A stretch of DNA of 64,000 nucleotides from the NCBI GenBank assembly GCA_019636215.1, contig JAHBXZ010000015.1, positions 11,540 through 75,539 on the forward strand, given 5' to 3'. Source of the DNA: Planctomycetota bacterium. Lineage in GTDB: Bacteria; Planctomycetota; UBA8742; UBA2392. The notes under the pieces are model-generated. The model was not told the origin of the DNA. It saw only the letters and a program-made list of their open reading frames with translations, and did not search any database. How positions within the stretch are numbered: the stretch's first letter is position 1; every line of letters begins with the position of its first letter. The translations under genes and the position numbers were made by a program. Positions 15,205 to 61,640 of the stretch are shown here, in pieces.

Positions 15205-15216
15205 GTTGACGATTTT

Positions 15217-25794: not shown

Positions 25795-25945
25795 AGCGGC
25801 GTGCAAGCACTTCCGGCGTCGAACGCCGGTCACGTGTCGTCAGTCCGCCTGTACCGCAATGCGCTTTCAACTTGAATCTCACCTTCGTTGTGACTTCAGT
25901 ACAGCAGCTACCACAGTTACAAGTGCCGTACCGAGGGGGCGGAAC

Positions 25946-27295: not shown

Positions 27296-27375
27296 AACGT
27301 CGCGCGGTTCCGGCTGGGGTGCGCCAACCTGTTGTTGGTAACGCACTGTGCATGTACGGGGCCAAGGCTGAAAAG

Positions 27376-28857
27376 CTATGGCTTTACGGTCAACCTTGCC
27401 GTGTAGGCCTCGCCTGTGTTGCGCATGTCCCAGGCGGTTTGGGCGAGAATGCCCTGGTCGCGCTTTACGGTGACCGGCTCGCGTTCCTTGGCGTTCACGA
27501 CCAGCCGGATCGGCTTGTTCAGGTCCACCAGCCCGTCGTGCAGCCACAGCACAAGTTCAGTCACGCCTTCGGTAGTCACCGTGATCAGGTTCTCGGCCTT
27601 GTTGATGGTGACGCTGGCAATGCCGCCGGCGGCCTGCTTTTCTGGCCAGTCGCCGCGCTTGCCTTGCCAGCTTTGCTGCTTGATCTCAAGCCAGCCGTGG
27701 CGGCTGTTGCCAGGGTTGTCGTCGTCTTTCATGCCGCGTGCGGTGACTTCGACCGGGTTGGGGTCGCGCTTGTGTTGCAGCATTTCGCCCAGTGCCTGCG
27801 CGATCAACTCGACCTTGGCGCTGCCGTGAAAGCCCTCATACTCGTGAAACTGCAGCGGCAGCTTGGCGGCCTGCATTTCGTCGCGGGCCTTGCGCGCCCA
27901 GGCGGTGGGGTACTTCTTGTCGTCGTTGGCGTGCACCCAGGTGACGGGAATGTTGCGGTGGCAATCCAGCCACGGAAACTCGACCGCTTGCTCGCCCAGT
28001 TTGCCCGTCGCGCGCAGGTCGTCGATCTTTTTGGCCTCGGTGGGCTTGATCTCGGTCAGGTAATGCATCGGCAAAGCATCCCGCACGCAGATCGCCGCGA
28101 ACTGCGAAGGCCGCAGCTGCGCCAGCCGGAAGCAGGCCTCGCCGCCCATTCCGCCGCCGGTGATGTAAATCCGGTCGCGGTCAATGTTGAAGTCGCGCAC
28201 AAGGCCGTCAACCAGGTTCAGCACGGAGTCGACACCCTCCGGTGAAGGGCCCCAGCCGAAGTAGGCCTGGATACCGGGCGGGTTGGTGGTGGGGTCGTGC
28301 GAGGCCAGCCCGCGATTGAGCGCCATCGGGCAGGCCAGGATGCAATCGGCCAGCCCGGCGGCCCCGCCGCGCAGGCAGGTGCGCAGGCCGGAAAGTTCAT
28401 ACCAGGCCGTGCCCTTTTCACTGTGCAGCCCGATCACCAGCGGCACAGGTTTGGCGGCACTGATGCCCTTGGGCAGGTCAAGCATTGCATAGGTGTTGTA
28501 GACCGTGCGCTTGGTGCGCACCTGATAGTTGTAATCCAGTGCACCCTCGTGCACTTCTTTCAGGTCGGGCAGCCTGGCAGGGGCGCGGCGCTGCAGGGCC
28601 AGGGCGTGATCACGCGCCGAAGGGTCGGCCAGTTCGCGGCCGTTCAGGCCGGCAATCAGCTTGTCGCGGGTCTTGTCGTCTTTGGCGGCAAACACGGCCT
28701 CCAGCGACGACTGGGCCGTGCCCTGCGCCAGCGCAAGCCCGGCCACAAGCGTCAACAGAATGCAAAGCCCGAATCGAACTGCCGGAGTCATGGCGTCTGT
28801 GTGGGGCTGCATCGGGCAACTTTCTCGACGGCAGTCTGGGCTGATCTGCCGCATCAC
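27376..28857 (-). CDS. Secreted alpha/beta-hydrolase-fold protein (esterase/peptidase-like) with the nucleophile Ser replaced by Gly
   Basis: PLVIGLHSEKG... and DRIYITGGGMGGEA align with the GxSxGG nucleophile elbow, but the Ser position is GGA (28150-28152). A signal peptide follows the alternative start at 28791. Confidence 0.75.
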   Translation of the reverse strand: MMRQISPDCRRESCPMQPHTDAMTPAVRFGLCILLTLVAGLALAQGTAQSSLEAVFAAKDDKTRDKLIAGLNGRELADPSARDHALALQRRAPARLPDLKEVHEGALDYNYQVRTKRTVYNTYAMLDLPKGISAAKPVPLVIGLHSEKGTAWYELSGLRTCLRGGAAGLADCILACPMALNRGLASHDPTTNPPGIQAYFGWGPSPEGVDSVLNLVDGLVRDFNIDRDRIYITGGGMGGEACFRLAQLRPSQFAAICVRDALPMHYLTEIKPTEAKKIDDLRATGKLGEQAVEFPWLDCHRNIPVTWVHANDDKKYPTAWARKARDEMQAAKLPLQFHEYEGFHGSAKVELIAQALGEMLQHKRDPNPVEVTARGMKDDDNPGNSRHGWLEIKQQSWQGKRGDWPEKQAAGGIASVTINKAENLITVTTEGVTELVLWLHDGLVDLNKPIRLVVNAKEREPVTVKRDQGILAQTAWDMRNTGEAYTARLTVKP

Positions 28858-47608: not shown

Positions 47609-49270
47609 CTAGTCCTTCAGTTCGTCGGCGTACTTTTTGGCCTGCTGGCGGATCAGCGGCTGGGGGTCGTTGTTGGCGACATTGAGAAAGTACGGCCGCA
47701 GTTTCTTGTCGTTCATTTCGCCCAGGCGAGTCAGTGCGGCCTGTCGCACGCGCGGGCTGGCGTCTTCGTCGATTACCTTTTTAAGCCGGTCGGTGTTCTT
47801 GGCCGGGATGTGCGCCACGGCCACGGCCCGCACGGCGGCGTCGCGGTCAGGGCCCAGGTAACTTTCGACAATCGTTTCGGCCTTGCGCGGGTCGCGGGCC
47901 AGCAGCGCGCCCAATGCCTGCGACTGTGTGCCGGGGTTTGCGCCTTGCTCGATGATGCGGGCGAGTTCAGCCGCGGCTTCGGGCAGCGGGCATTGGCGCA
48001 GGCCCTCAATCGCGCCGGTGGCGGTGGCAGAGTCAGCGGCGGCGGCCGACTCGGCCAGCAGCTTGAGATCTTCGGTGGTCCGGGCGCGATAACCCCAGGC
48101 GGCCAGGTAATCACCCAGGTTGGCGTCTTTGCGCTGCAGGCCGGTCTCCAGAAGCTCGCGGGCCTTGGGCAGTTCGGTGCGGCACAGTCGCTGGATCAGC
48201 AGTTGCTTTTCAGCCTGCGGCGCATTGCCCGCCAGCACCCGGGCGACCAGTGCCGAAACAGCGTCGCCTTGCTGGATCACCCGGTCGCCCAGCGGTGTGC
48301 GCACCAGCGAACCAGCCTTGAGCTGACCCGGCGGGGTGTACACCGGGAACATCTGCACCAGGGTCGCGGTGTAAGGCCGCAACCAGGGCGCGTCCATCTG
48401 GGCCAGCAGCGCGGGCACGTCCGCCTGTGCGGTTGCGTAGACGGCAAAGGCCTGCTCTCGCAGTTTCAGGTCGGCGGTGCCGCGTTCCAGCAGGCGGCGC
48501 ACTTCCTGCTCAAACTCGCGCGCGAGCTCGGGCCGGTCGGTCAGGATCGCGGCTTCAGTGATGTGCCACAGTGTGAGTTCAAGCGCCCAGGCCGGGATTT
48601 GCGTGTCCAGCGCGTTGCGGGCAAATGCCAGCGGGCGCGGGTCGGCGGTGGGTTCGGAAGACTGCATCTGCAGCACCAATCGGCGCAGCAGCGTGTGGGC
48701 ATAGGCCTTGAGCTCGTCTTCTTCGCCGGGGTCATAGATTTCGTCGGTGCCCAGGAACTTGCCGGCGCGAAGTTCCAGCGCGCGCGCGGCCCAGCCCAGG
48801 GCGGGCTCCTGGGCGTGAAATGCCGCAAAGAACTGCGTGCGCACAAAGGCGCTGCGCTCGGGTTCCAGGGCTGCCTGCACGCGCTCGTCGACAAGTTCGT
48901 GCGGCCGACAATTGCGCAGGGCTTGGTGGGCAAGGTTGATGCCGCGCCCGTCATTCACCTTGGTCGCGTGGGCCAACTGACCCAGGTAGATGTCGATTTC
49001 GCGGGCGCTGTTGGCCTGTTCCTCAACGGGGGGCTCGCCGCCCTCTGGTTCGGGGCCGGGCGGCCTGTCGGTTTCGGATTCGTTGGCCGGGGCATTCTCG
49101 GCAGGCAGGTCGCGGCCCCGGCTGCCAAGGTCGGCAACTTTTGGCCCGTTGCCTGCGCCGGGCGCGGCTTCATTGACCGCGCCGGGGCGCCTGGGCGCAA
49201 TCCACACAAAGGCCAGCACCGCCGCCACAGGCAGCAGAAACAACGGCCAAAGGTGTTTGCGACCCGACAT
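47609..49270 (-). CDS. HEAT-repeat protein with an N-terminal TM anchor
   Basis: LWPLFLLPVAAVLAFVWIA TM segment and C-terminal PBS-lyase-type HEAT units (DAAVRAVAVAHIP..., ASPRVRQAALTRLGEM). Confidence 0.8.
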   Translation of the reverse strand: MSGRKHLWPLFLLPVAAVLAFVWIAPRRPGAVNEAAPGAGNGPKVADLGSRGRDLPAENAPANESETDRPPGPEPEGGEPPVEEQANSAREIDIYLGQLAHATKVNDGRGINLAHQALRNCRPHELVDERVQAALEPERSAFVRTQFFAAFHAQEPALGWAARALELRAGKFLGTDEIYDPGEEDELKAYAHTLLRRLVLQMQSSEPTADPRPLAFARNALDTQIPAWALELTLWHITEAAILTDRPELAREFEQEVRRLLERGTADLKLREQAFAVYATAQADVPALLAQMDAPWLRPYTATLVQMFPVYTPPGQLKAGSLVRTPLGDRVIQQGDAVSALVARVLAGNAPQAEKQLLIQRLCRTELPKARELLETGLQRKDANLGDYLAAWGYRARTTEDLKLLAESAAAADSATATGAIEGLRQCPLPEAAAELARIIEQGANPGTQSQALGALLARDPRKAETIVESYLGPDRDAAVRAVAVAHIPAKNTDRLKKVIDEDASPRVRQAALTRLGEMNDKKLRPYFLNVANNDPQPLIRQQAKKYADELKD

Positions 49271-49646
49271 GCTTCCTTAGTTAACGACGACCCAGCGACA
49301 ATGGCAGGGGAAAGAGGTGCGAAGTGTGGAGTTTGGGGGCGGGAGTTGGGAGGCCGGAGTTAACAGCAAAACGGGACACAGGTTGAGTCGTTGCAGCTAC
49401 TCGCGCCTCCGGCCTCCCGCCTGCGAACTGCGCCGCGCGCTGGCGCTTGCGGCTCTTGTTCTGAGCCAAGCGCCAACCTCGCGACACCCCTGTTTGCGAA
49501 TCGGGTTACATGCTTCCCCCGAAGTGAATTGCGCAAAACGGGTTGCGTGGCAAACCTTGCGGCCTTCATGACTTGGGCATAGACTTGCCCGCGCTGCACT
49601 AACCCCCAACTTATGCGCCGGCCTGCGTAGTGCCGGACGGTCTTCC

Positions 49647-52600
49647 ATGCCCCGAATCACCTTCAAGAAGTCAGAACGCCCCCCGGTTGACCTGCACGAA
49701 GCGGCCACGGTCGGCCGTTCTGAGCAGCACGCCAACGTGGTGGTGAAAGACAACCGCCTGTCGCGGGCCCATTGCCGGTTTGAGCCCCGCGAAGACGGCA
49801 CCTGGGCGATCGTGGACCTGGACAGCCAGAACGGCACCTTCCTCAATGGTCGCCGCATCAAGGAAGCACTGGTCAAACCGGGCGACGTCGTCACCATCGG
49901 CGCCTGCGACATGGTGTTTGAGGCCAACAGCGGCCCGGGTGCCAGCACAGTCATGGCCGGTGTGCAATCCTCGCGCGCCGGCGCGGCGGACTTTTCGGCC
50001 GTGGGCGAAGACAAGCCGCGCAAGGAAGACAGCAACAAGGTCGACAGCACCCGCACCGTTGTCGCCCCCGCTGCCCTGGTGCTGATTGAGGGTAGCCTGG
50101 CCGACAAGATTCACCCGATCACGCAGGATGTCTTCACCATCGGCCGCAAGAAGGACAACCACCTGTGTCTGGAAGGCGACACCAAGGCCAGCGGCCACCA
50201 CGCGCACATCAAGCGCGACGGCCTGACCTACGTGCTGGAAGACCTGAAAAGCATGAACGGGGTGTCGGTCAATGGCACGCGCATCACTGCGCCGGTCAGC
50301 CTGAAGCCCGGCAATCGCGTTGAAATCGGTTTGCAGACCTTCGAGTTTCAGCTTCAGGGCAAGCCGAACATTTCCAGCGGCATGACGGCGCCCAAGCTGG
50401 CGCGCGAGGACATCAAGGCCCGCCTGAGTGCCCCCGGTGCGGCCGGCGAACAGGACGACCTGGACGAACTTGACCCCGGCGCGGCAGCCACCGGCGCCGA
50501 AGCCACCGGCGAGTCCACCGCCCAGCTTGACGCCCACGACCGCGCGGCCCTGACCCAGAAAGTGGCCAAGGTTTCCAGCGGCGCGGTGTTCGGCATCATT
50601 GAAGTGATCGTGGTGCTGGCGATTGCCGGCGGTGTGCTGTACGCGGCCTGGATGCTGTCGCGCGACGAAGGCGAACAGATCGGCGGCGATGGCCAGGGCA
50701 ACTACGGCCCGGCGCGGCCGGGCGGGATGATCACCGTCAACTCCAGCTTTGATGAAAAGGACGAAGGCGGGTTTGCCAAGGGATGGCGCTATGAAGTCGC
50801 GGGCACGGACAGCTTTGCGCTGGTCGAAGGCGCCCGCGGCGGCCAGTACGCGATGCAGCTTGCGCGGTACTCACCGGGCAACTCGGCCAGCTATGTGGTC
50901 AGCGCGGCCATGGAGCTTGGCGGCGCCAAGGGCATCAAGGCCTCGGCCTTTGCGGTGAACAGCGAGTTCAGTGTGGACCGGTTCGGCGTTGCGGTGGTTT
51001 CCATTTTCTGGCTGGAACACCCGCGCGACCGCGACCCGATCCTGGTGACGCCGGTGGCGTTCAAGACGCGCATCGACAAGTGGACGGAACTAGCGGGGTC
51101 TGCCGCCGCGCCGCCGGGCGCCCGCGCCTTTGCCGTGGCGGTGGGCATCTGCGGCGCCAGCGGCAGCGTGGCCTTTGACGACGTGACGGCCGAAAAAGAC
51201 GACACCGCACCGCGCTGGTGGCAGCCCTACACACTGAAAACCGTCGAGGGCATGACCTGGTCCATCAGCAACGACGGCAGCATCGGGCTGGAGGGCCGCG
51301 AGGGCACCCTGCTGCGCGGCGGCCGCATCACCATGCACCAGGCCGACGGCCGCGTAGATGGCCTGGACGCCCTGACCATGCTGGCCGGGCCTCCCGCCGT
51401 AACGGTAAGTGATTCGCGCATCACCGCGGCCTTTGACTACTTTGACCCGCTGGCCGAACGCCGCGTGCGCCTGAACCTTGAACTGGGCGGCGAAGGCAAG
51501 GCCGCGGTCATCAACGCGCGCCTGGCAGCCACAGCCGACGGCCCGCTGGAAGGCGCGGCCAAGCGCGTGGCGCTGCACGTTCTGGCCACGCCGGCGTTTG
51601 CCCCGGCCGAACTGCTGCGGTTTGAGGGCGGCGCGCTGATGGAGTACCGCAGTGAAATCGGCAGCCCCACGGTGCGCAAGCCGATCGGCACCCTGACGGC
51701 CTCCAACACCGGCACAGGCAACACACTGTCGGCAGCCGCGGGCCTGGGCGCGACACTTTCGGCCACACAGCACCCCGGCGGGCGCGAACTGTTCATCCAG
51801 AATCCGCAGGGAATTTCGTTATCCATCGCCCAGGGCGAGGGCCTGGACGAACTGCAGCAGACGGTCGCGCTGCTGGCCGGCGTGCAGCAGGGCGAAGACC
51901 AGGTAGACCGCGTACAGCGCGCCCTGGAGATCTTCCGGCGATTTCCCTACTGCCAGCCGGAGCTTGCGACGGCGGCGCTGGCGATTGACGGCGCGGCCAA
52001 GGACTACAAGCTGCGGCTGGTCGAACTGCGCGACGGCATCAATGTGCCGCAGTTGACCCGCAACGAACGCCTGTACCGCAGCGCCATGGAACAGGCCATT
52101 GCCATCTCCACGCGGCTGTCGGCCATGCGCACAAGCTGGGAGGCCGAGTCGCTGGAAACCCTGCGCCAGGCCGGGCAGGCCGCCATGAGCGCCGCCACCA
52201 AGGAAGCCGCCGAGCGCGCCCGCATCGGGCTGGTGCAGCTGATTGACGTGGCCAACGACTTTGTGGGCCTGGGCGAAACCGCGCGCAAGAACCTGTTTCT
52301 GCTTGAGATCGACGTGCAGCAGCGCGACAGCGAACCGTTTGTGGTTTCGGCGCGCGACTTTCTGGCCGGCGGCCAGTACGTGCAGGGCATGCTGAAGCTG
52401 CGCACCGTCGTCACCAACCACCCGCGTTGCCTGCGCGGCATTGAGGCCAAGGAGCGGCTGGTCGACGTGGCCGAACGCCTGATTGCCGAGGCGGCGGACT
52501 ACAGCAAGCAGGGGCTGAAGAACATTGCGACCGACCGGGGTGTGCAGGCGCGCTCGCAGTTGAACCTGGCCGACAAGCAGCTTCTGGCGCGGATCCTGAG

Positions 52601-52751
52601 TGACCAGGAAAAAGGCTGGCTGATGCGCGCCAAGTTCGGCGACGGCAGCCTGGGCAAGGACTGGATGGACCGCGAAAACGCGCTGTTGCGGCGCATCACC
52701 GAACTTCGGGGCAAGCTGCCGACCGGGCTTCCGGCCGACACGGGGGAATAG
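49647..52751 (+). CDS. Double-FHA-domain membrane protein with a periplasmic jelly-roll (CBM-like) domain and a helical domain
   Basis: FHA1 is TVGRSEQHANVVVKDNRLSRAHCRF...DLDSQNGTFLNGRRI. FHA2 is FTIGRKKDNHLCLEGDTKASGHHAHI...DLKSMNGVSVNGTRI. TM segment is AVFGIIEVIVVLAIAGGVLYAAWML. Confidence 0.88.
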   Translation: MPRITFKKSERPPVDLHEAATVGRSEQHANVVVKDNRLSRAHCRFEPREDGTWAIVDLDSQNGTFLNGRRIKEALVKPGDVVTIGACDMVFEANSGPGASTVMAGVQSSRAGAADFSAVGEDKPRKEDSNKVDSTRTVVAPAALVLIEGSLADKIHPITQDVFTIGRKKDNHLCLEGDTKASGHHAHIKRDGLTYVLEDLKSMNGVSVNGTRITAPVSLKPGNRVEIGLQTFEFQLQGKPNISSGMTAPKLAREDIKARLSAPGAAGEQDDLDELDPGAAATGAEATGESTAQLDAHDRAALTQKVAKVSSGAVFGIIEVIVVLAIAGGVLYAAWMLSRDEGEQIGGDGQGNYGPARPGGMITVNSSFDEKDEGGFAKGWRYEVAGTDSFALVEGARGGQYAMQLARYSPGNSASYVVSAAMELGGAKGIKASAFAVNSEFSVDRFGVAVVSIFWLEHPRDRDPILVTPVAFKTRIDKWTELAGSAAAPPGARAFAVAVGICGASGSVAFDDVTAEKDDTAPRWWQPYTLKTVEGMTWSISNDGSIGLEGREGTLLRGGRITMHQADGRVDGLDALTMLAGPPAVTVSDSRITAAFDYFDPLAERRVRLNLELGGEGKAAVINARLAATADGPLEGAAKRVALHVLATPAFAPAELLRFEGGALMEYRSEIGSPTVRKPIGTLTASNTGTGNTLSAAAGLGATLSATQHPGGRELFIQNPQGISLSIAQGEGLDELQQTVALLAGVQQGEDQVDRVQRALEIFRRFPYCQPELATAALAIDGAAKDYKLRLVELRDGINVPQLTRNERLYRSAMEQAIAISTRLSAMRTSWEAESLETLRQAGQAAMSAATKEAAERARIGLVQLIDVANDFVGLGETARKNLFLLEIDVQQRDSEPFVVSARDFLAGGQYVQGMLKLRTVVTNHPRCLRGIEAKERLVDVAERLIAEAADYSKQGLKNIATDRGVQARSQLNLADKQLLARILSDQEKGWLMRAKFGDGSLGKDWMDRENALLRRITELRGKLPTGLPADTGE

Positions 52752-52753
52752 GC

Positions 52754-54421
52754 ATGGCCTTTGGGCTGGACATCGGTGCTTCGCTTTCCGCGCTGGCGGG
52801 CCTGTCCCGCCGCGGCGGCACCTGGCGGCTGGACCACGCGCTGGTGCTGCCGGGCTTCCGGCGCGACCCCGAGGCCAAGGCCGAGGCCTATGCCGACGCC
52901 CCGCTGGCCAGCACGTTTCGCGCGCTTTCCAGCCTGGGCGTGCGCCCGGGCAGCCCCGCGGTGCTGGTGCATGGGCGCGACGTGTTCTACCGGTTTACGC
53001 CCAGCGGCACCGACCCGCGCATGATCGAGCGCCAGGTGCAGCTGGAAGCCGACGAGCTTTCCGGCGAAGAAGGCAAAGTGCTGGCCGACCACGTAAGCGG
53101 CTGCGACTTTGACTATTCGCCCGTGATCCATATCGGGCTTGCGCGCGAGAACGTGATTGACCACTTCGCGGGCTGCCTGCGCGCCATGGGCATATCGTTT
53201 GGCCCGCTGACGCCGGGCTGCCCGGCGCTGTTTTCGGCCTACCAGGTTTCGGGCGATACCGACAGCGAAACGGTGTACCTGATTGCCAACATCGGCGACG
53301 AAAACACCGACATCATCATGGTGCGCGAGGGCAGCCTGCTGTACGCGCGCGACATCGGCGTGGGCGTGGAAGACTTCATCACCCGGCTGCTGCCGGAATA
53401 CGGCGGCGACCGCGACGCCGTGCGCCGCGTGCTGTTCAACGAAATCGACCTGCGCCCGGCCATTGCCGCCGACAACCTGCAGGGCAACCGCGGCGTCGAT
53501 GCCGGCCAGGAAGTCGCCGCGCGGCTTTTCCAGCAGATCACCAGCACGATCATGCTGGCCAAGGGGGCGCACAAGGCACCCAAACTGGATGCCGGCAAGA
53601 TCCTGCTGTGCGGCCCTGGCGCGGGCATTCCGGGCCTGCGCGAGTTGATGATGAACCGCACGCGCAAGCAGGTTGAGATTTTCGACCCGCTGGAAAAAGT
53701 CAGCCTGGACGGGCTTTCCGACCGCAGCCAGGAAACCGTCAACGCCTACCGCCCCGCACTGGCGCTGGCCGTGGGGCTTGCGCGCATCAACGCCGACCGC
53801 CGCGCCGAACGCATCGCGTTTCTGCCCGCCAGTGTGCGCAAACGCCGCGAGTTCCTGAACAAGAGCCTGTTTCTGTACCTGGCCGCGGCCGCGGTGCTGG
53901 CGGTGCTGGTGCCGCTGTACCTGCTTTCCTCGCGCGCTGCGACCACGGCTGCCGATGAACTCAAGCGCCGCCAGCAGGCGCCGATCGGGCGCTACCTGAA
54001 CGCCAGCAAGGAGATTGAGGTCTACAAGAAAGGCAACATCCGCGCCCAGCAGCGCGCCGATGCCTCCGACCTTGCGACCGCGCCCGGCCGCGTTTCAACC
54101 GCGATTCTCACCCAGCTTGCCAAGGTGCGACCGGACACCGCCCGTGTGCGCAGCGCGGTCCTGGAAACCCAGACCGGCAACCCCACAGGCGACAAGAACT
54201 TCGTGCCGCGCACGGTGCTGAAGATGAGTTTCTTTCTGGAAAGCCAGGAAGGCGCCGACCCGATCAAGGTCAAAGACGAACTGCGCGACGCCATCAAGAA
54301 GATCCCCGGCGTGAAAGCCGTGGTTCCCGGCGCCGCATCGCCCAGCGCCACAGTGCCGGGCATGAACGTGGAATACACCATCGAGCTTGACCTCGGGCCG
54401 GCCGGCAAGGGGGGCGCGTAA
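52754..54421 (+). CDS. PilM-like actin-fold ATPase fused to a PilN-like TM/periplasmic domain (GspL-like architecture)
   Basis: AFGLDIGAS..., IANIGDENTDIIMV and ILLCGPGAGIPGL are actin-like phosphate and adenosine motifs. They are followed by RKRREFLNKSLFLYLAAAAVLAVLVPLYLL and a ~170-aa periplasmic domain. Confidence 0.8.
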   Translation: MAFGLDIGASLSALAGLSRRGGTWRLDHALVLPGFRRDPEAKAEAYADAPLASTFRALSSLGVRPGSPAVLVHGRDVFYRFTPSGTDPRMIERQVQLEADELSGEEGKVLADHVSGCDFDYSPVIHIGLARENVIDHFAGCLRAMGISFGPLTPGCPALFSAYQVSGDTDSETVYLIANIGDENTDIIMVREGSLLYARDIGVGVEDFITRLLPEYGGDRDAVRRVLFNEIDLRPAIAADNLQGNRGVDAGQEVAARLFQQITSTIMLAKGAHKAPKLDAGKILLCGPGAGIPGLRELMMNRTRKQVEIFDPLEKVSLDGLSDRSQETVNAYRPALALAVGLARINADRRAERIAFLPASVRKRREFLNKSLFLYLAAAAVLAVLVPLYLLSSRAATTAADELKRRQQAPIGRYLNASKEIEVYKKGNIRAQQRADASDLATAPGRVSTAILTQLAKVRPDTARVRSAVLETQTGNPTGDKNFVPRTVLKMSFFLESQEGADPIKVKDELRDAIKKIPGVKAVVPGAASPSATVPGMNVEYTIELDLGPAGKGGA

Positions 54422-55341
54422 TGGACTTCCTGAAGAAACACGCGCGCTTTCTGGTCGTGCTGGTCGTGCTGGCCGTGCTGCTGTTCTTTGCCAACCGCGA
54501 ACTGGCCGATTCCTCGCGCCGCGTCGAGGCCGCGCGCGGCAGCACCGCGTCACTGCTCAAGGCCAACTACAGCGCGCTGTTCAAGGACGCCAAGGCCTAC
54601 AATGGCGAGCCCGCTGTGGTGGAGGGTCGCAAGATCCAGGACCGCACCCAGAACCTTCAGCAGGTGGAGTCCGCCCGCAACCAGATGCTGACTTTTGAGA
54701 CCGACCCGCAGTACACCCTGGCGTCGCTGGGCGCCGATGCCGGGGACGACGACAAGGTGCAGTACTACCGCAACAAGGCATCGCAGCTTTCCCGCGAACT
54801 TGCCTTCAAGCGCTACTTCCGGCCCGAAGGCGACACCGCGCTGGGCTTCAAGGCCGGCGAAGACCGCATTGCGGCCGCGCGTGTGCCGGACCTGCTGCGC
54901 CGGCTGGACATCGTGGCCACGGTAAGTGCCAGCGTGGGCCGCACCGGCGTGACATGGCTGAACAAACTGGCGTTCAAGGCCGTGGACAAAGACCTGGAGG
55001 CCCGCCGCCTGCCCGCAGTGCCCACGGCCGACGGCGAGGCCCCGTACCTGCAATCGGAGGGCCTGGAGATTGAGGTGCAGGCCGGCGAGCAGGCGCTGTA
55101 CAACTTCCTGCTGGACCTGCAGCGCCCGATGAAGGGCGACTCGCGCACGCGTTACCTGGCCGTCGAGCGCTTCAAACTGGAAAAGGCCGACCTGCTGGAC
55201 CCGGCCGACAACCTGATCACGGCAACAGTCCTGATCGTGGCCTACCGCGTGAATGAATCCAGCAGCTACCCGGTGGACCGCAGCGCGCCGGAATCACAGC
55301 AGAGCAAAGTCGGGCAACCCCGTTCGTTCCGGGACAGGTAA
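54421..55341 (+). CDS. PilO/GspM-like bitopic membrane protein
   Basis: N-terminal TM (FLVVLVVLAVLLFF), a coiled region and an alpha/beta C-terminus. The start overlaps the upstream stop (TAATG). Confidence 0.55.
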   Translation: MDFLKKHARFLVVLVVLAVLLFFANRELADSSRRVEAARGSTASLLKANYSALFKDAKAYNGEPAVVEGRKIQDRTQNLQQVESARNQMLTFETDPQYTLASLGADAGDDDKVQYYRNKASQLSRELAFKRYFRPEGDTALGFKAGEDRIAAARVPDLLRRLDIVATVSASVGRTGVTWLNKLAFKAVDKDLEARRLPAVPTADGEAPYLQSEGLEIEVQAGEQALYNFLLDLQRPMKGDSRTRYLAVERFKLEKADLLDPADNLITATVLIVAYRVNESSSYPVDRSAPESQQSKVGQPRSFRDR

Positions 55342-55346
55342 CAGCC

Positions 55347-55847
55347 ATGGATACAGACACCATTTTGCGCAAGCTGTCCGAGTGGAAAGAGAGAATCCTC
55401 TTCTGCGCGGTGCTGCTGTGCGTGCTGTACGTGGCCCGCAATGCGACTCTGACCGGCGCGGGCATCGACACCATTGACCGCGAAACCCGCCAGGCCGCAA
55501 TCGGGGCCTCGGGCGTTGACGAACAGACGGGCATGCGCGCGCTGGAACGCCTGCAGAAGCCGCCCGATATCTCGCCCACGCCGCCTGACCCGGCACAGGT
55601 GAACCGCCTGTTCTACGACGAGCGCGATGTGTACCGCCTGCCCCGGCCCTCGGGCTGGATGCTGGGCCAGGAAAACTTCGAGCGCCTGCCGCCGCTGCCG
55701 ATTTCGGTTCCGGACTACCCGTTGCTGACGGATTTTGACATGCCCACCGGCACCATGCCTGATCTGTCGCGTGCCCGGGGCATTGTGCCGCGCGACCTGC
55801 GCAAGGTTACGCTGTCTGACACTGACACCAGCGAGTTCAAGGACTAG
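55347..55847 (+). CDS. Small bitopic membrane protein (occupies the PilP/GspC position)
   Basis: 166 aa with TM segment ILFCAVLLCVLYV. Begins 5 nt after the upstream stop. Confidence 0.55.
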   Translation: MDTDTILRKLSEWKERILFCAVLLCVLYVARNATLTGAGIDTIDRETRQAAIGASGVDEQTGMRALERLQKPPDISPTPPDPAQVNRLFYDERDVYRLPRPSGWMLGQENFERLPPLPISVPDYPLLTDFDMPTGTMPDLSRARGIVPRDLRKVTLSDTDTSEFKD

Positions 55848-55855
55848 GAGACGCC

Positions 55856-58792
55856 GTGAACACGCGAACTGCCCTGCTTGGCTTGCTTGTGCTGCTTACC
55901 GCCGCGCCATTGTGCGCGCAGACCGCGATCACCGAAAAACCGCGCAATTACCTGGTAATCCAGGCCGATGGCGCCAACCGCGAATGGGAAGTGCGCCCGG
56001 TGCGCTTTTCCGACAAAGGCGGCAGTACGCTGCTGGGCGCCAGCGAAGGCGAGTTCCAGCTCAAGATCGACCGCTGGGAACGCACCGGCCTTGCGCGCCG
56101 TTACGTGACCAAACCCTGGAAGGACGCTTTTGCGCGCTATGGTGCGCCCGCCAGCCCGCCGGACGCGCGGTTTTATTTTTACGCCATCAACCCGCGCCAG
56201 CCGCTGGCCGAAGGCAAGCTTACGGTGGTGGACGCCAAGCGCCGGCTGTACTGGGTGCCGCTGGCCGGTGTGCGCGTGATCGGATACCCGCAGACCTGGG
56301 TCGATGTATGGGAGGGTTACGTCAACCAGTTCCAGGGCGAGCAGCGCCAGCAGGCCGTCAAGGAATGGGAAACCGCAAGGCGCGACCTGATTCGCAACGA
56401 CCCCAACGTGGCCGGCGGCTTCACGCCCGAAGAACGCAACGAGTTCGCGCGCTTTTACCAGCAGCAGTTTGTCTACATCCGCGACCGCAGCCCGCTGCTG
56501 CCCGGCATTTACGACGAGCTGGCGGCGTTCTTCAAGGAACGCGGCAACCTGGACGCCGAGCTTTCGACCTACCTCGACGCGCTGCGCGCCCGTGACCAGT
56601 CCGGCGCGACCATCCCAAGCCCCGACCGCGAGCGTTTCCGCCTGGCCGTCGGGCGCATACTGGTCGAGCGCCTGCAGCTTTACTTCGATGCCCGCGAACA
56701 CCTGGCGGCCGCGCGCAACTTTGCAGAGTCGCGCTATCTGCTGGCGCTGTGCCACCTGCGCCTTGGCGACACCGAAAAGGCCCGCGAGGAACTGGCCGCG
56801 CTGGTCACCCTGCTGCAGACCCCGCCGCCCGAAGGCGCGCTGATTTCCGACCTGTCCCCCGAGGAAGAACTCGGGCGCGCCAACCTGCTGCTGGGCGAAG
56901 TCGAACTTGGGCTGGGCAACTTCGGCGCGGCCAACTCCGCACTGGACCGTGTGCCGCCGGCCAGCCGCTTTTTCCAGGATTCACGGCTGATGTTCGCGGC
57001 CATGCTGCTGTACCGCAACGAGCGCGGCGCAACCGCCGGCGACCACGATACCCAGAAGGTACGCGACACCCTCAAGGCCCTGCCGCTGTGGGCCGAGGCC
57101 CAGGCCTTTTTCAACCCCAAGCCCGACACCGTGTTTCCGCTGCGGCCCGACATCGCCCGCGCGCTGGTTCTGCACGTGCAGGCCGATGACGCCCTGCGCA
57201 ACCCGGCCACGGTGGCCCAGCGCCCGGCACCTGACCTGCTGCGGTACCTGGCGTCGGCCAAGGCGCTGGACCCGCTTTCGGCAGACCCGTACTACGCCGA
57301 GGGTCGCCTGTACCAGCACTTCGGCATGTTCCGCGAGGCCATGGCCGCCTTCACCGCGGGGCTTGATGTAAACCCCCGCGACGTGCTGTGCAACTACCGC
57401 GTGGCCGACCTGAACTTCAAGGCCGGCGTGTTTTCGGCGGCCAAGGATTACCTTTCGCGCTGCCTGAAAGTCAGCCCGAACTTTTACCCGGCGCTGACCC
57501 GGCTGGGCGAAATCTCGGTGCTGGAGATTGAGGGCATCCGCGACGCGCTGGCGATCAAAATCCAGGGCGGCGAAAAGGTGGATTACGCCGGCGAACTGGT
57601 TCCGCCGATGAAAGAGGCCGCGGCCTTCTGGTCGGCCAGCCTGGGTATTTATGCCAACCAGCCCGCGACGCAGCTTTCGCTGGCCACGCTGTACCTGCAG
57701 CTGGCGGAACTTGCGCCGCTGGCCATTGCCGACCGCGCCGATGCCATGGAGGTCAAGCGCGCGTACCTGACCAAGGCCCGCGAACTCAGCTTCGCGCTGG
57801 TGCTGGCCGCACGCGAGTACGCCCGCACCGCAAAGTCCCGCAGCCCCGACCCGCGCCAGCGCGCCGAGGCCCCCAGCCTTGCGGCCTTCAACGCCTGGGC
57901 GTTTTCGATGTACGCGCTGGGCGACTACGCGGCCGCCAAGGCGGCGTTTGAGGAACACCTGGAGGCCTCCAAGGTGTCCGAGTTCTTCCCGGACACGCAA
58001 AGCCGGGGCGCCTACCAGTCATCGTCGGCGCTGGCCTATGCCGCCACATGGCTGCAGCGCATCAATGAAAACGACCGCCGCTACTTTGAAATCATTGAGT
58101 TCAAGAAAGACAGCACCGCGGATTACTTCGGCGAATGGGTGCCGCGCATGAAGCCCAAGCCCGACAGCGGCTTTTCGGGCGCCACGACCATCCGCTCGGG
58201 CATTCTGAACCTGGGTGTGAACCAGGCCGAAACCGGCGTGATCTCGCGGCTGGAGGTCGAAAAACCCCATACCACGCTGGCGGTGTTCGAGGCCGAGTTC
58301 GTGCGCACCGGCGACGCCTACATGAACCGCGGCATTGAACTGACCAAGTGCAGCGCTGCGGCAACCGGGGAATCCCAGCCGGTGGCGTCGGTGCTGCTGG
58401 GCGTGGACACCGAGGGCCGGGTGTACTACGAGACGCGGCGCTTCCGGCTTGATAACGCCGCCAAGCCTGAAGAACAGAAGGATTACGCGCTGATCGACGT
58501 GCGCAGCTACGGCGGCATTCCCCTGAACAAGGATGAGAAGCTGACATTGGCCCTTCGCCGCCAGCTTTCGACGGACCTCAGCGCGATTGAATACTGGGCC
58601 GTGATCAACGGCTATGAGGTCAAGCTGAACGTGACGATCGGCGACCTGACCAGCCAGGACGTCAAGCAAAGCCAGTTCAAGCAGCGCTGCGCGTTCTTTG
58701 CCCAGGCGGTGGCGGGCGTAAAGGCCACCGTGCAGGTGCGGCGCGTGCGCTTCATCTATGACAGCGGCCTGGGCGGAAAGGCCGGTAACTGA
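55856..58792 (+). CDS. Secreted 978-aa TPR protein with a C-terminal beta-sandwich (lectin/jelly-roll-like) domain
   Basis: Signal peptide ALLGLLVLLTAAPLCAQ, multiple TPR units (YLLALCHLRLGDTEKAREEL, YYAEGRLYQHFGMFREAMAAF...), and a beta-rich last ~270 aa. Confidence 0.8.
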   Translation: MNTRTALLGLLVLLTAAPLCAQTAITEKPRNYLVIQADGANREWEVRPVRFSDKGGSTLLGASEGEFQLKIDRWERTGLARRYVTKPWKDAFARYGAPASPPDARFYFYAINPRQPLAEGKLTVVDAKRRLYWVPLAGVRVIGYPQTWVDVWEGYVNQFQGEQRQQAVKEWETARRDLIRNDPNVAGGFTPEERNEFARFYQQQFVYIRDRSPLLPGIYDELAAFFKERGNLDAELSTYLDALRARDQSGATIPSPDRERFRLAVGRILVERLQLYFDAREHLAAARNFAESRYLLALCHLRLGDTEKAREELAALVTLLQTPPPEGALISDLSPEEELGRANLLLGEVELGLGNFGAANSALDRVPPASRFFQDSRLMFAAMLLYRNERGATAGDHDTQKVRDTLKALPLWAEAQAFFNPKPDTVFPLRPDIARALVLHVQADDALRNPATVAQRPAPDLLRYLASAKALDPLSADPYYAEGRLYQHFGMFREAMAAFTAGLDVNPRDVLCNYRVADLNFKAGVFSAAKDYLSRCLKVSPNFYPALTRLGEISVLEIEGIRDALAIKIQGGEKVDYAGELVPPMKEAAAFWSASLGIYANQPATQLSLATLYLQLAELAPLAIADRADAMEVKRAYLTKARELSFALVLAAREYARTAKSRSPDPRQRAEAPSLAAFNAWAFSMYALGDYAAAKAAFEEHLEASKVSEFFPDTQSRGAYQSSSALAYAATWLQRINENDRRYFEIIEFKKDSTADYFGEWVPRMKPKPDSGFSGATTIRSGILNLGVNQAETGVISRLEVEKPHTTLAVFEAEFVRTGDAYMNRGIELTKCSAAATGESQPVASVLLGVDTEGRVYYETRRFRLDNAAKPEEQKDYALIDVRSYGGIPLNKDEKLTLALRRQLSTDLSAIEYWAVINGYEVKLNVTIGDLTSQDVKQSQFKQRCAFFAQAVAGVKATVQVRRVRFIYDSGLGGKAGN

Positions 58793-59496
58793 TGGCGCGC
58801 CGGGGTTCACGCGGCTTCACGCTGATCGAACTGATGATCGTCATCGGCATCATCCTGCTGCTTGTGGGTGTGCTGGTGGTCAGCTTCGGCGGTGTGTTCG
58901 CCAAGCGCGACAACGCCCGCGCCACGGCCACGATTGAAACCCTTAAGGCCAACATCGCGTCCTTTGAAAGCCGCTGGGGCCAGGCCCCGCCGGGCAGCCT
59001 GCGCGAACTGGGCGACCTGACCCGCACCCTGAACCTGCTGGAAGTCAACGACACCAACCGGGGCAATGAGGCCCTGGTGCTGGCCCTGCGTTCGCGCCGC
59101 GAGGGCGGGCCGTACCTGGACCAGAACCTGTTCGGCGATGCCTCGCGCATGGGCAACCTGGACAACGACACCTTTCTGGCCGACGCGATTGCATCCAGTG
59201 CGCTGGACTTGCCCGACACCGCCAGCACGGACCTGTTTGAAGTGCTGGACCCCTGGGGCAACCCGTTCATTTACGTCAACATCATCGACGTTCGCGCGGG
59301 TACCGTGGCCGACAAGATCACACTGATCGACGGCAGCGTCATTGAAATCACCGCCCAGGATTGCCAGGAAAAGCTGCGCCACCCTGTCACCGGCGATTAC
59401 CCGCAGGGCTTTGCCCTGTGGAGCGTGGGCGAAAACGGCATCAACGAATACGGCCGCGGCGACGACATCACCAGCTGGCCGAAGTACGAAAGCTAG
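58792..59496 (+). CDS. Type II secretion / type IV pilus pseudopilin (prepilin-type N-terminal methylation domain)
   Basis: RG|FTLIELMIVIGIILLLVGVLV. The start overlaps the upstream stop (TGATG). Confidence 0.88.
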   Translation: MARRGSRGFTLIELMIVIGIILLLVGVLVVSFGGVFAKRDNARATATIETLKANIASFESRWGQAPPGSLRELGDLTRTLNLLEVNDTNRGNEALVLALRSRREGGPYLDQNLFGDASRMGNLDNDTFLADAIASSALDLPDTASTDLFEVLDPWGNPFIYVNIIDVRAGTVADKITLIDGSVIEITAQDCQEKLRHPVTGDYPQGFALWSVGENGINEYGRGDDITSWPKYES

Positions 59497-59545
59497 CCCC
59501 GGTCACCGGCAGCACGGGTACTCCACATTGCGCGCGGGGCGCTGC

Positions 59546-59575
59546 TGCAAACGAACTGTGAAAATGCTCTATACT
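59546..59575 (+). promoter_or_regulatory. Sigma70-like promoter candidate for the heparinase-like gene
   Basis: TGCAAA (59546-59551), 18-nt spacer, TATACT (59570-59575), 25 nt before ATG 59601. Confidence 0.3.
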
Positions 59576-59600
59576 GGTGCCGCCTGTCCCGGAGCCGCCT

Positions 59601-61640
59601 ATGCACCGCCTGCTGATCCCGCTGGCCTTGCTTGTCTGGCTTGGTTTTGCCCCGGCCTCGGCCCAGCGCCAGAAGCTGAAAGACCCCGAGATCCCCAAAC
59701 CCGCGCCCGCCGTCAAATCCGGCGCCTGGGCCGAAGTGCTCAAGGCCAGTCAGCCCCGCACACTGGGGCCGGTGGCCTGGCTCAAGCAACGGGCCAGGGA
59801 TTACCCCGAGCTTTACAAGCGCGTCCAGGGCTGCGCCGGCGATACCCTGCAGGCCGCGGGCATCGTCGCGGCCGTGGAGGGGCTCACGCCGGATCGGGTC
59901 AAGCCGTTTCTCGACCAGGCCCGGGCCGATGCCAAACGCGGCGCGACCAACGTGCACCAGGACACCTGGGTCTGGATGCAGCGCGTGGCCCTGTGCTTTG
60001 ACTACTTTCGCGACCACCTGACCGACGACGACCGCAAGCAGTTCATCCAGTTTCTCAACGCCAACTTCGACAGCTTCACCGACGACGAAAACGCCTTTCA
60101 CAACAGCACGATGACCAAGATCCTGGTCTATCTGCAGATCGCCTACGCCACATGGACGGAAAACCCCCGGGCCAAGGAGTTCCGCGACAAGGCCCTTTCT
60201 TTTCTTTATGAACAGCGCGTGCTGCCGGTACTGATGGAGTTCGGGCGCGGCGGCGGCGGAACGGAATGCGGCTGGTACCTCAAGGGTGCGCTGTGGGCCC
60301 TGTGCCAGGGGCTGGAGCTGGCCCGGCGCGTGGAGGGCTATGAGGGCATGGCCAAGGCCGAGCGTTTTTTCTACCAGCGCCTGGCCTATGAGCTGTTCCA
60401 GTGCTACCCGGGCAAACACAAGGACTGGTACGGCGCCGAACGCTACCCGCTGGAGGGCGACGCCGCAGCCATGTACGGCGGCCACAACGAGTTCCCGATG
60501 AACACGCGGGTGCTGCTGGCGGCGCACTTTCGGGGCAGCGAACTGGCCCGCGCTTGTGCCAACTTCCGGCGCCGGGGCGGCAACGCCCAGTCGGACGTGC
60601 AGCTGTTCCTGTGGGACGACAAGCCCGACGACCCGCTGCCGCTGGCACAGCTTCCGCTGGCCCATGCCGCGCTGGGCATCGGCAAAGTGTTTGCCCGCAG
60701 CAGCTGGGCCGACGACGCCACGTGGTTCCGGTTTGAGTGCAGCGACTATTACTGCGCGCACCAGCACTTTGACGCCGGCAACTTTGAGATCTTCCGGCAC
60801 GAATCGCTGGCCACGGAAAGCGGCGAGTACCACGACTGGGGTTCAGGCCACGCCATGAATTGGCTGGTGCGCACGATTGCCCACAACTGTGTGCTGGTAC
60901 ACGACCCCGCCGAAACCTGGAAGCAGATGCGCGATGGCGGCCGGGTGCTCTACGCCAACGACGGCGGCCAGGCCAAGAAATGGCAGTGGCCGGTGGCGGA
61001 CCTCGAAACCTGGAAGAAGCGGCAATCGGAGTTCGAACGCGGCGACATTGTCGCCTATGCCAACACCGATGCGGCGTTGTTCGTGGCCGCCGACGTGACG
61101 GCCGCCTACTCGCCCGCCAAGCTGAAACTGTGGACGCGCCAGATTGTCTTCCTGCGCCCCGGGCTGTTCGTGATTCTTGACCACGTCGAAAGCACCCAGC
61201 CCGAGTTTGCCAAGACCTGGCTGATCCATTGCCGCAACGAACCCCAGCTGAAGGGCAACCTGTTCACCATCAAGGATGGCGCCGGTGAACTGCACGGCCA
61301 GTGCCTGCTGCCCGCCGACGCGAAGCTGGCAAGCGTGAACGGTTACACTTACGGCGGCCAGACCTTCGACCCACCGCAAAGCGGGCACAGCCAGTTTGCC
61401 TGCAAGTGGCGCCTGGAAACCACGCCCGGCAAGGCAGCCGCCGGCGACGTGTTCCTGCACGTGCTGTCCACCGATGGCCCCGTGGACGCCGAACTCAAGG
61501 ACGCCGGGGGCAGGCTGACGGTAAAGGTCAGCAAACCTGTGCGCGCCGAGATCACCTTTGCCCAAGACATCGGCGCCACCGTCAAGGCCGGCAAGATCAC
61601 CGAATTCAAGCGCGAGATCGTCGCCGGCAAGTTCGAGTAG
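59601..61640 (+). CDS. Heparinase II/III-like family protein (secreted)
   Basis: Signal peptide MHRLLIPLALLVWLGFAPASAQ. YYCAHQHFDAGNFEIFRHESLATESG is typical of the heparinase II/III C-terminal domain. Confidence 0.82.
   Translation: MHRLLIPLALLVWLGFAPASAQRQKLKDPEIPKPAPAVKSGAWAEVLKASQPRTLGPVAWLKQRARDYPELYKRVQGCAGDTLQAAGIVAAVEGLTPDRVKPFLDQARADAKRGATNVHQDTWVWMQRVALCFDYFRDHLTDDDRKQFIQFLNANFDSFTDDENAFHNSTMTKILVYLQIAYATWTENPRAKEFRDKALSFLYEQRVLPVLMEFGRGGGGTECGWYLKGALWALCQGLELARRVEGYEGMAKAERFFYQRLAYELFQCYPGKHKDWYGAERYPLEGDAAAMYGGHNEFPMNTRVLLAAHFRGSELARACANFRRRGGNAQSDVQLFLWDDKPDDPLPLAQLPLAHAALGIGKVFARSSWADDATWFRFECSDYYCAHQHFDAGNFEIFRHESLATESGEYHDWGSGHAMNWLVRTIAHNCVLVHDPAETWKQMRDGGRVLYANDGGQAKKWQWPVADLETWKKRQSEFERGDIVAYANTDAALFVAADVTAAYSPAKLKLWTRQIVFLRPGLFVILDHVESTQPEFAKTWLIHCRNEPQLKGNLFTIKDGAGELHGQCLLPADAKLASVNGYTYGGQTFDPPQSGHSQFACKWRLETTPGKAAAGDVFLHVLSTDGPVDAELKDAGGRLTVKVSKPVRAEITFAQDIGATVKAGKITEFKREIVAGKFE

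Follow-up and report, generated by a model that had tools for sequence, protein, structure and literature searches.

A stretch of 64,000 nucleotides from a Planctomycetota bacterium (assembly GCA_019636215.1, contig JAHBXZ010000015.1, positions 11,540 to 75,539 of the forward strand; hereafter the window, whose numbering is used throughout) contains at 49647-59496 an operon of six plus-strand genes, here called g1 to g6. This operon probably encodes, for a type IV filament machine restricted to a clade of uncultured Planctomycetota, the fibre subunit and the inner-membrane platform on which it is assembled, with the motor and the prepilin peptidase supplied in trans and with assembly controlled through FHA domains. 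In kind the system is already known: it belongs to the type IV filament superfamily as a platform of the PilM/PilN/PilO type and is a relative, among the Planctomycetes-Verrucomicrobia-Chlamydiae (PVC) bacteria, of the Amuc_1100 cluster of Akkermansia. Its new features are a double-FHA bitopic protein and a giant beta-TPR-beta protein, neither of which has a described counterpart in such platforms, and the lack of a secretin in cis.

A sequence-only reading of the window had described six tightly packed open reading frames (ORFs), and all of them were found at exactly the coordinates and spacings that it gave. The genes and their parts are as follows (aa, amino acids).

g1, 49647..52751, plus strand: 1034 aa; predicted bitopic protein of the inner membrane; two FHA domains on the cytoplasmic side, an acidic linker, a transmembrane helix and a periplasmic region of ~700 aa
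g1 FHA domain 1, 49698..49925, plus strand: aa 18-93 (Pfam)
g1 FHA domain 2, 50055..50351, plus strand: aa 137-235 (Pfam and PDB profile)
g1 transmembrane helix, 50580..50654, plus strand: about aa 312-336, within a hydrophobic segment at ~aa 305-340 (Kyte-Doolittle window maximum 2.64)
g2, 52754..54421, plus strand: 555 aa; best read as a PilM-PilN fusion with an actin-like PilM domain, a PilN-type motif, a transmembrane helix and a periplasmic domain of ~160 aa
g2 PilN-type motif, 53813..53944, plus strand: I354-A-F-L-P358, basic R362, R364 and R365, then the transmembrane helix
g3, 54421..55341, plus strand: 306 aa; bitopic protein of predicted PilO/Amuc_1100 fold
g4, 55347..55847, plus strand: 166 aa; short bitopic protein with an N-terminal transmembrane helix and a proline-rich periplasmic tail
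g5, 55856..58792, plus strand: 978 aa, GTG start; predicted Sec-exported periplasmic scaffold (AlphaFold2 model, TPR matches)
g5 N-terminal beta-rich domain, 55943..56290, plus strand: aa 30-145; 8 strands by DSSP of the model, predicted local distance difference test score (pLDDT) 78-92
g5 TPR/alpha-solenoid, 56297..58078, plus strand: aa 148-741, ~600 residues (sequence and model)
g5 C-terminal beta domain, 58079..58762, plus strand: aa 742-969; ~13 strands in the model
g6, 58792..59496, plus strand: 234 aa; type IV prepilin/pseudopilin with a class III signal peptide

Going from g1 to g6, the first junction is a gap of 2 nt, the second an overlap of 1 nt (TAATG), the third and fourth are gaps of 5 and 8 nt, and the last is again an overlap of 1 nt (TGATG); a purine-rich stretch resembling a Shine-Dalgarno sequence lies upstream of the start at each of them. 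All six are real coding frames, because their GC content at third codon positions is 0.83-0.87 in a window of 65% GC.

The exact six-gene order was compared across Planctomycetota genomes, as the sequence-only reading had suggested. A scan of one genome per species yielded 21 loci (relatives' loci are numbered L001 and so on), 20 of which are long enough for the full gene order. The order g1-g2-g3-g4-g5-g6 on a single strand is kept in 20 of these 20, which come from different species known as metagenome-assembled genomes (MAGs) and share 36-81% aa identity. In 21 of 21 loci g2 and g3 overlap, by 1 or 4 nt, and elsewhere in the operon the median gap is between 2 and 15 nt, depending on the junction. 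The flanks, by contrast, differ among relatives, and the search for a conserved flanking partner ended with the best family present in only 8 of 22 loci, so that none was accepted. Thus the six genes are the unit of inheritance: they form one conserved operon. A homologue search with g2 matched solely proteins of uncultured Planctomycetota MAGs, at 49-100% identity; every one of the carriers is an uncultured MAG, and the operon is known here from genes alone.

Two related MAGs show an interruption between g4 and g5. An extra ORF of 154 aa there (L010:13291-13755 and L005:13302-13766) was considered as a seventh component and rejected, as it is an IS200-type (Y1_Tnp) transposase insertion. In L005, g5 is moreover split into two ORFs (13750-15171 and 15186-16844), which reflects either inactivation of the operon there or an assembly frameshift.

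One link to known platforms comes from g2. It matches the Pfam family PilM_2 at 43.2 bits (cut-off 27), and residues 3-344 of its family profile align to the entire PilM of Myxococcus (3jc8_M, E 1.7e-13) and also to that of Pseudomonas aeruginosa. Among narrower models, the TIGR01175 pilM subfamily is not reached (59.5 against a cut-off of 133), and the NCBIfam model Amuc_1101_fam matches aa 282-437, across the junction between domain and membrane helix, at E 2.4e-16 and 59.7 bits, again below its cut-off; FtsA is matched weakly (E 0.039 in Pfam, 0.0027 in NCBIfam). The single transmembrane segment lies at about aa 367-397. Directly before it stands an I-x-[FL]-L-P motif followed by basic residues, and F356, P358, R362, R364, R365 and F367 are invariant in 16 homologues. 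We take this motif to resemble the N-terminal 'INLLP' peptide by which PilN binds PilM (PilM:PilN structures 2YCH and 5EOU). Because the PilM domain is followed directly by a PilN-type motif and then by a transmembrane helix, the most fitting reading of g2 is a PilM-PilN fusion, and its topology is then GspL-like. The PilN model of Pfam does not match g2, and hhalign of the C-terminal part of g2 against HofN was negative; no Pfam or NCBIfam family for GspL matches it either, and hhalign against E. coli GspL gave a probability below 1%, both hhalign comparisons being weak tests with a single-sequence template. Of the earlier description of g2 as a PilM-like actin fold joined through a membrane helix to a segment in the position of PilN, with the architecture of GspL, the domains and the topology therefore stand, by virtue of the PilM_2 match and the invariant motif, but a match to a GspL model is lacking.

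For g3, sequence and structure give different answers. No sequence-profile match was found in Pfam, NCBIfam or PDB, and Pfam searches with 24 g3 homologues at E up to 10 gave nothing relevant. The AlphaFold2 model built with the 24 homologues (pLDDT 76.9) combines a transmembrane helix and long helices with a pair of alpha-beta-beta units (aa 152-277). When this model was used in a Foldseek search, the top 10 matches were all Amuc_1100 (E 8e-7 to 9e-6, TM-score on target 0.57-0.71), followed by PilO of P. aeruginosa (2rjz, E 3e-4) and Myxococcus (3jc8_O, 1.2e-3). The identity between g3 and Amuc_1100 in sequence is 10-12%. The model thus predicts a PilO/Amuc_1100 fold for g3, and it is by fold, not by sequence, that g3 qualifies as PilO-like; the earlier view of g3 as a bitopic PilO/GspM-like protein is borne out for PilO in this structural sense. 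As for GspM, no Pfam or NCBIfam family matched, and hhalign against E. coli GspM stayed below 1% probability, a weak test with a single-sequence template. More broadly, hhalign of the families of g3, of the C- and N-terminal parts of g2 and of g4 against single E. coli sequences of HofM/N/O/P and GspC/L/M gave less than 3% probability throughout, which is uninformative with such templates. Searched against 1.84 billion representative proteins, the g3 family profile reached only 30 clusters; the family is narrow and stays separate from ordinary PilO.

A g3-type domain also occurs away from any pilus-like operon. In L039 (2532-3683), a protein of 383 aa, similar to the g3 core over its C-terminal 150 residues (E 8e-12), adjoins a histidine kinase and a ZnuA-like gene, so that such a domain may serve in other contexts. 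Accordingly the weakest matches of the g3 profile are not all orthologous loci, because P0131, with its g3-like C-terminal domain, stands in an unrelated context in L039.

The last gene of the operon, g6, is a prepilin. Its product begins MARRGSRG|FTLIELM and continues into a globular domain of ~165 aa without conserved cysteines. All 19 g6 orthologues share the motif G|FTL[IV]E, with G at -1, F at +1 and E at +5 as in a class III signal peptide, and N_methyl of Pfam matches at E 4e-7 (29.7, cut-off 21.2). The GspG model of NCBIfam matches the N-terminus at 4e-9, below its cut-off. In the profile search against PDB the alpha-1 helix alone was matched, by type IV pilins and GspG equally well, and the globular part matched nothing; thus the earlier pseudopilin call holds in so far as a prepilin was meant, and alpha-1 does not favour GspG over a type IV pilin. 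Full-length homologues of g6 are found even in distant loci (phmmer E 2e-33 and 3e-18).

The first gene encodes the component that sets the operon apart. Pfam and hydropathy agree with the earlier description of g1 as two FHA domains and a transmembrane helix, the FHA pair being matched at E 2.5e-35. In the profile search against PDB, the FHA domains of EmbR, Rv1747 and GarA were matched, the matches covering the FHA domains only. In FHA domains, phospho-threonine is bound by Arg in the beta3-4 loop, Ser-x-x-His in the beta4-5 loop and Asn in the beta6-7 loop. The first domain of g1 has invariant G23-R24, S39-x-x-H42 and N62-G63 in 19 orthologues, and the second has invariant G166-R167, S182, H185 and N204-G205 in the same set. 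Both FHA domains thus keep the canonical residues predicted to bind phospho-threonine (R24/S39/H42/N62 and R167/S182/H185/N204). With a score of 125.3, the FHA part just reaches the threshold of 125 set for the mycobacterial FhaB/FipA model. The periplasmic part of ~700 aa matched no Pfam family in any of 19 orthologues and no PDB sequence, and hhalign of its segments against LamG-domain pilins, the C-terminal domain of g5 and the giant protein described below revealed no relationship; its residues 317-553 are nevertheless conserved in the distant locus L033 (phmmer E 8e-9). The jelly-roll plus helical region that the earlier description placed here finds no support in these searches.

The fifth product, g5, is modelled with confidence (pLDDT 87.2), and the signal peptide, TPR region and C-terminal beta domain previously ascribed to it were confirmed by the model and by the signal peptides of its orthologues. 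Searches by sequence and, with the whole model, by fold (Foldseek) returned generic TPR proteins only. The C-terminal beta domain has no Pfam or PDB sequence match, and hhalign related it neither to LamG-domain pilins nor to the giant protein described below. Signal peptides of the AxA|Q type are present in the orthologues, which lack a conserved Cys, a terminal aromatic residue and an outer-membrane protein beta-signal; g5 is therefore a soluble exported protein (~950 aa), neither a lipoprotein pilotin nor an outer-membrane barrel. TPR proteins are ordinary accessory factors in type IV filament systems. The earlier suggestion that g5 takes the place of a secretin amounts to no more than a positional analogy.

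The product of g4 has an N-terminal transmembrane segment and is conserved in 20 orthologues with the invariant tail LPP...P...D...G..P...PRD.R.V.L, and it is absent from the most distant variant, L034. It has no match in Pfam, NCBIfam or PDB and no conserved lipobox Cys. The transmembrane helix, the missing lipobox Cys, the proline-rich periplasmic tail and the lack of any family match do not point to a PilP lipoprotein; the PilP/GspC role once proposed for it finds no support beyond its position in the operon.

How far does the module reach beyond the clade of the window? Partial or extended versions occur in more distant loci. L030 has g3-like and g4-like genes and a TPR protein of 1006 aa; L032/L033 have a double-FHA protein, PilM, g3-like, g4-like, TPR and pilin genes; and L034 has the same set without g4. 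By phmmer, g5 matches at 8e-84 in L030 and at 5e-15 in L032; with the matches of g1 residues 317-553 and of full-length g6, this establishes homology outside the generic domains. A second prepilin (N_methyl plus the concanavalin-like Laminin_G_3) follows in the operons of L032 and L034, and after it comes a giant protein (L034:11659-17510; L032:8431-13335). The N-terminus of the L034 giant, 1597 aa in length, matches the tip pseudopilin GspK at 1e-8, below the curated cut-off; the L032 giant, of 1748 aa and only partly covered by the locus, has no GspK match. Within 10 kb of the operon in the clade of the window, neither the lectin-domain pilin nor the giant protein was found.

These distant loci also tie the module to Akkermansia. 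The PilM-like protein of L034 matches Amuc_1101_fam at 97 bits (E 1e-27, aa 46-457), better than the generic pilM model, and its g3-like protein matches Amuc_1100_fam over nearly the whole length at 18.5 bits (E 1.1e-3). Since the equivalog cut-offs are 650 bits for the Amuc_1101 family (NF045709) and 180 bits for the Amuc_1100 family (NF038287), membership of g2 and its L034 counterpart as Amuc_1101 equivalogs is ruled out (59.7 and 97 bits against 650); they are homologous nonetheless. Because the fold match of g3 concurs with the Amuc_1101_fam matches of g2 and L034 and the Amuc_1100_fam match of L034, the module is a distant relative of the Akkermansia Amuc_1098-1102/MUL2 pilus-like cluster. 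The statement of the sequence-only reading that no such system had been described was thus too strong, as the best structural match of g3 is Amuc_1100 and both g2 and its distant orthologue match the Amuc_1101 family. In the literature, no description of a planctomycete FHA/PilM/TPR system was found.

Directly upstream of the double-FHA gene, L034 encodes a regulator with FHA, GAF, sigma54-activator and HTH domains (901-2859), which suggests sigma-54 control combined with phospho-threonine signalling.

What the operon lacks was searched for with phmmer, using E. coli GspC/D/E/F/G/L/M/O, HofB/C/M/N/O/P/Q and PpdD against every stop-to-stop segment (minimum length 80 aa) of the window and of L001-L022. 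Only g6 orthologues were matched in the window and these 22 loci. Pfam on all called window genes revealed no PilB/GspE, PilC/GspF, prepilin peptidase or secretin, in agreement with what had been noted from the sequence of the 64 kb, and for the secretin the negative result extends to the flanks of 21 loci (phmmer with GspD and HofQ, Pfam on window genes, precomputed Pfam on flanks). On an 845-kb contig carrying an identical g5, the 10 kb downstream of g5 contain no motor, peptidase or secretin genes, and in none of the relatives' loci inspected does a complete pilBCQ or gspDEF set stand beside the operon, an arrangement that the sequence-only reading had itself raised as contrary to its proposal. 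The platform may thus be called incomplete, as it was then, in the sense that motor, peptidase and secretin are absent in cis; this mostly means that the motor is presumably encoded in trans. Having pilB, pilC and pilD elsewhere in the genome is normal for operons of the pilMNOPQ type.

Two relatives carry further pilus-type genes near the module. In L028 (GCA_964267665.1), a gene for a T2SSE ATPase with an MshEN domain (1-1798) ends 5 kb upstream of g1; a gene of 743 codons for a protein without assignment and two VWA-domain genes lie in between, and a small extra FHA protein is encoded 3 kb downstream (19755-20186). L027 has a further small T2SSG-like gene 2 kb downstream of the module (precomputed Pfam).

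From components that are identified, conserved and inherited together, we infer a set of interactions, and a dependence on genes elsewhere, as follows. In the cytoplasmic membrane, g2, g3 and g4 would form a ring or platform. The g6 prepilin would be cleaved by a prepilin peptidase encoded elsewhere, and a PilB/GspE-family ATPase together with PilC/GspF, also encoded in trans, would dock on the PilM domains and polymerise g6 into a fibre. The TPR superhelix of g5, together with the periplasmic stretch of 700 aa in g1, might bridge the wide planctomycete periplasm towards the wall and the outer membrane, where they could dock to a trans-encoded secretin, like the TPR accessory proteins of other pilus systems, or hold ligands. 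In the cytoplasm, g1 could couple assembly to Ser/Thr-kinase signalling through a phospho-threonine partner. As for the fibre, a pilus that adheres or binds polymers is the likeliest form, favoured because the distant variants add a lectin-domain pilin and a GspK-like giant. In favour of the reading as a whole, a genome of this clade, that of L028, does encode a T2SSE ATPase with an MshEN domain. Several points weigh against it: profile searches link neither g3 to PilO nor g4 to PilP at the level of sequence; no ATPase, platform protein, peptidase or secretin was found in the 64-kb window, in the 5 kb that follow it or within 10 kb on either side of the operon in the 21 loci from the genome scan; and the machine would depend on parts encoded in trans. 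Prepilins need an A24 peptidase for their maturation, and no type IV filament is known to assemble in the absence of PilC/GspF and a PilB/GspE ATPase, because of which the module must rely on genes elsewhere.

Could the same genes serve secretion instead? In a machine resembling type II secretion systems (T2SS), g6 would build a short pseudopilus in the periplasm, which would drive folded proteins, glycan-degrading enzymes for instance, out through a trans-encoded secretin, with g2 acting as GspL and g3 as GspM. The topology of g2 is that of GspL, the best NCBIfam match of g6 and its distant homologues is the GspG N-terminus, the L034 giant matches GspK, g6 has no conserved disulphide, and a heparinase-like lyase gene follows the operon in the window and in L002. 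However, the GspG, GspK and pilM matches are all below curated cut-offs, neither GspL nor GspM is matched as a family, g2 matches PilM models and structures rather than GspL, and no GspC/D/E/F is found nearby; the lyase neighbour is not conserved past the nearest relative, and the alpha-1 helix of g6 fits type IV pilins as well as GspG. We therefore regard secretion of this type as a doubtful account of the operon.

The absence of a secretin can also be taken at face value. The operon would then encode a secretin-free, PVC-specific envelope-spanning machine, in which g1 and g5 form the periplasmic and outer part, polymers are captured on the g6 fibre or imported into the periplasm and FHA-dependent phosphorylation acts as the switch. 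No secretin was found in cis in ~25 loci, although pilQ normally closes pilMNOPQ operons, and two very large beta-domain proteins of the periplasm invariably occur together. Fibre-bearing complexes of planctomycetes link both membranes and bind dextran (PMC5394234), and the Akkermansia relative is required for the accumulation of mucin products in the cell (PMC12418764). If this account were true, the operon would be a molecular candidate for those fibre-bearing uptake complexes and a model for the role of the Akkermansia Amuc_1100 cluster. It is improbable, since g5 is soluble and has no membrane anchor, lipobox or outer-membrane protein signal, and since the prepilin needs a peptidase from elsewhere, so that the locus is not self-sufficient anyway. 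In addition, a g3 family of 30 clusters among 1.84 billion proteins, with all contig-traced relatives in MAGs or metagenomes, does not fit the general crateriform machine of model planctomycetes.

Very improbable is a function without a filament, as an envelope or division scaffold in which a PilM/FtsA-type protein works with FHA and TPR partners in planctomycetes lacking FtsZ, or with the TPR protein acting in exopolysaccharide export (TPR-plus-beta proteins do occur in polysaccharide export): the weak FtsA matches of g2 and the FHA part of g1 at the FhaB/FipA cut-off are outweighed by a dedicated prepilin in every locus, extra minor pilins in distant loci, the PilO fold of g3, the lack of any linked glycosyltransferase or division gene, and a g5 C-terminal domain without porin features.

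Three features of the surroundings of the operon in the window are as follows.

Leader/promoter region, 49271..49646, plus strand: 376 nt, between the divergent HEAT gene and g1
HEAT-repeat gene, 47609-49270, divergent (Pfam)
Ser/Thr kinase with TPR repeats, 2661-6182, minus strand: 43 kb from the operon (Pfam)

A scan of 47-62 kb for promoters, terminators and Rfam families revealed nothing above background, and the leader itself contains no sigma-70-like promoter, terminator excess or Rfam family. In a 99%-identical strain (Logan SRR12908357, L001:1775-6728), ~4.95 kb replace ~175 nt of this region (window 49307-49482), a strain-level indel; the insert encodes, on the minus strand between the HEAT gene and g1, a protein of 1537 aa with 32 WD40 repeats. 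The sequence-only reading had proposed the HEAT-repeat protein and the kinase as sources of phospho-threonine input to the FHA domains. This finds no support, since neither is a conserved partner: the HEAT gene is adjacent only in the two nearest relatives, with the WD40 gene inserted in one strain, and the kinase is 43 kb away. Both the HEAT gene and the heparinase gene were rejected as parts of the system, being adjacent only in one or two nearest relatives. The heparinase II/III-like gene (window 59497-59640 region) adjoins the operon only in the strain group of the window and in L002, and its probable start is ~59632, the one called on the 845-kb contig (679 aa), and not the GTG at 59577, which leaves a gap of ~135 nt after g6. 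A class III adenylate/guanylate cyclase with TPR adjoins the module in at least seven loci (L014:4415-6697, L015, L021, L008, L011, L016 and L027:16920-18950); in three of them it stands 159 nt upstream and shares the strand, in the others its place or strand differs, and the L027 cyclase includes a HAMP domain. This neighbour may provide a cyclic-nucleotide input.

Elsewhere in the window, Pfam identified genes of housekeeping function (ProRS, UvrA, RNase E/G, RibF and a GreA fusion), PSCyt2/PSD1 proteins typical of planctomycetes, TPR proteins and a single Ser/Thr kinase, the one listed above; PADLOC returned no defence-system family. Two low-GC stretches (8001-10000 and 26001-28000, 0.58 against ~0.65), maybe foreign DNA, hold long ORFs without a Pfam match (8650-10074, minus strand, 474 aa; 25859-27295, plus strand, 478 aa). 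At 360-2615, the last 150 residues of an ORF of 751 aa are a complete GreA/GreB, preceded by an N-terminal extension of ~600 aa without a Pfam match, which is either a real fusion or an artefact of ORF calling.

Among known systems, the PilM-PilN-PilO-PilP-PilQ platform of P. aeruginosa and M. xanthus shares with the operon the PilM domain, the PilN-type motif with its transmembrane helix, the PilO fold and the order in which the first three functions are encoded. It differs in that the planctomycete operon has PilM and PilN fused, lacks a PilP-type lipoprotein and a secretin, adds a double-FHA membrane protein and a giant TPR protein, and includes the pilin gene. In loci of the PilMNOPQ type, motor and peptidase are likewise encoded elsewhere. 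Another parallel in layout may be the mshI-J-K-L-M-N operon of the mannose-sensitive haemagglutinin (MSH) pilus of Vibrio, which begins with a fused PilM/PilN-like gene, followed by a PilO-like second and a small third gene, and includes the TPR protein MshN. MSH operons also contain, placed between those genes, the secretin MshL and the ATPase-like MshM, whereas MshN is much smaller than g5 and an FHA protein is lacking. A link to MSH is the MshEN-domain ATPase gene 5 kb from the module in one relative, L028. With GspL and GspM of the T2SS, g2 and g3 share topology (actin-like domain, transmembrane helix and periplasmic domain in the former; a bitopic, ferredoxin-like protein in the latter), but there is no family or profile similarity, the signal being that of PilM.

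The combination of cytoplasmic FHA domains, a single transmembrane helix and a large periplasmic part within a multi-protein envelope machine is found, as in g1, in GltG of Myxococcus gliding, in YscD/PrgH of the type III secretion system and in TagH/Fha of the type VI secretion system. The Yop-YscD_cpl, GltG and TagH models match g1 through the FHA domains alone (GltG 67 bits against 650; TagH 63 against 120), and the periplasmic region of g1 is unrelated to any of these proteins. We know of none of these machines that uses PilM, PilN or PilO. In g1, type IV filament platforms would gain a first candidate for an integral component with FHA domains, which, if confirmed, would wire pilus assembly in these bacteria directly to Ser/Thr-kinase signalling.

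The nearest described relative is the Amuc_1098-1102 (MUL2) cluster of Akkermansia muciniphila. It includes Amuc_1099, Amuc_1100, the PilM-like Amuc_1101, the pilin-like Amuc_1102 and the PilQ secretin Amuc_1098 (PMC13174399, PMC10688800), and its genes are required for the intracellular accumulation of mucin products (PMC12418764). The two systems share a PVC host, a fused PilM-like membrane protein of ~550-600 aa and an Amuc_1100-fold bitopic protein encoded next to the PilM-like gene, followed by a small protein and a pilin-like subunit (PMC13174399). On the other hand, Akkermansia has the adjacent secretin Amuc_1098 (PMC10688800), whereas the operon has none in cis; the Akkermansia cluster as described contains neither a double-FHA protein nor a TPR protein of 978 aa; and its pilin-like protein has been described as archaeal-type (PMC13174399), whereas g6 has the bacterial G|FTLIE prepilin N-terminus. 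The comparison connects Amuc_1100, by way of another, independent lineage of PVC bacteria, with a platform role of the PilO type. It also brings to light, in a clade represented by metagenomes only, a conserved cassette of seven domain types carried by an FHA2 protein, a PilM-N fusion, an Amuc_1100/PilO-fold protein, a small bitopic protein, a giant TPR protein and a pilin, which provides candidate genes for the way in which planctomycetes bind and import polymers (PMC5394234).

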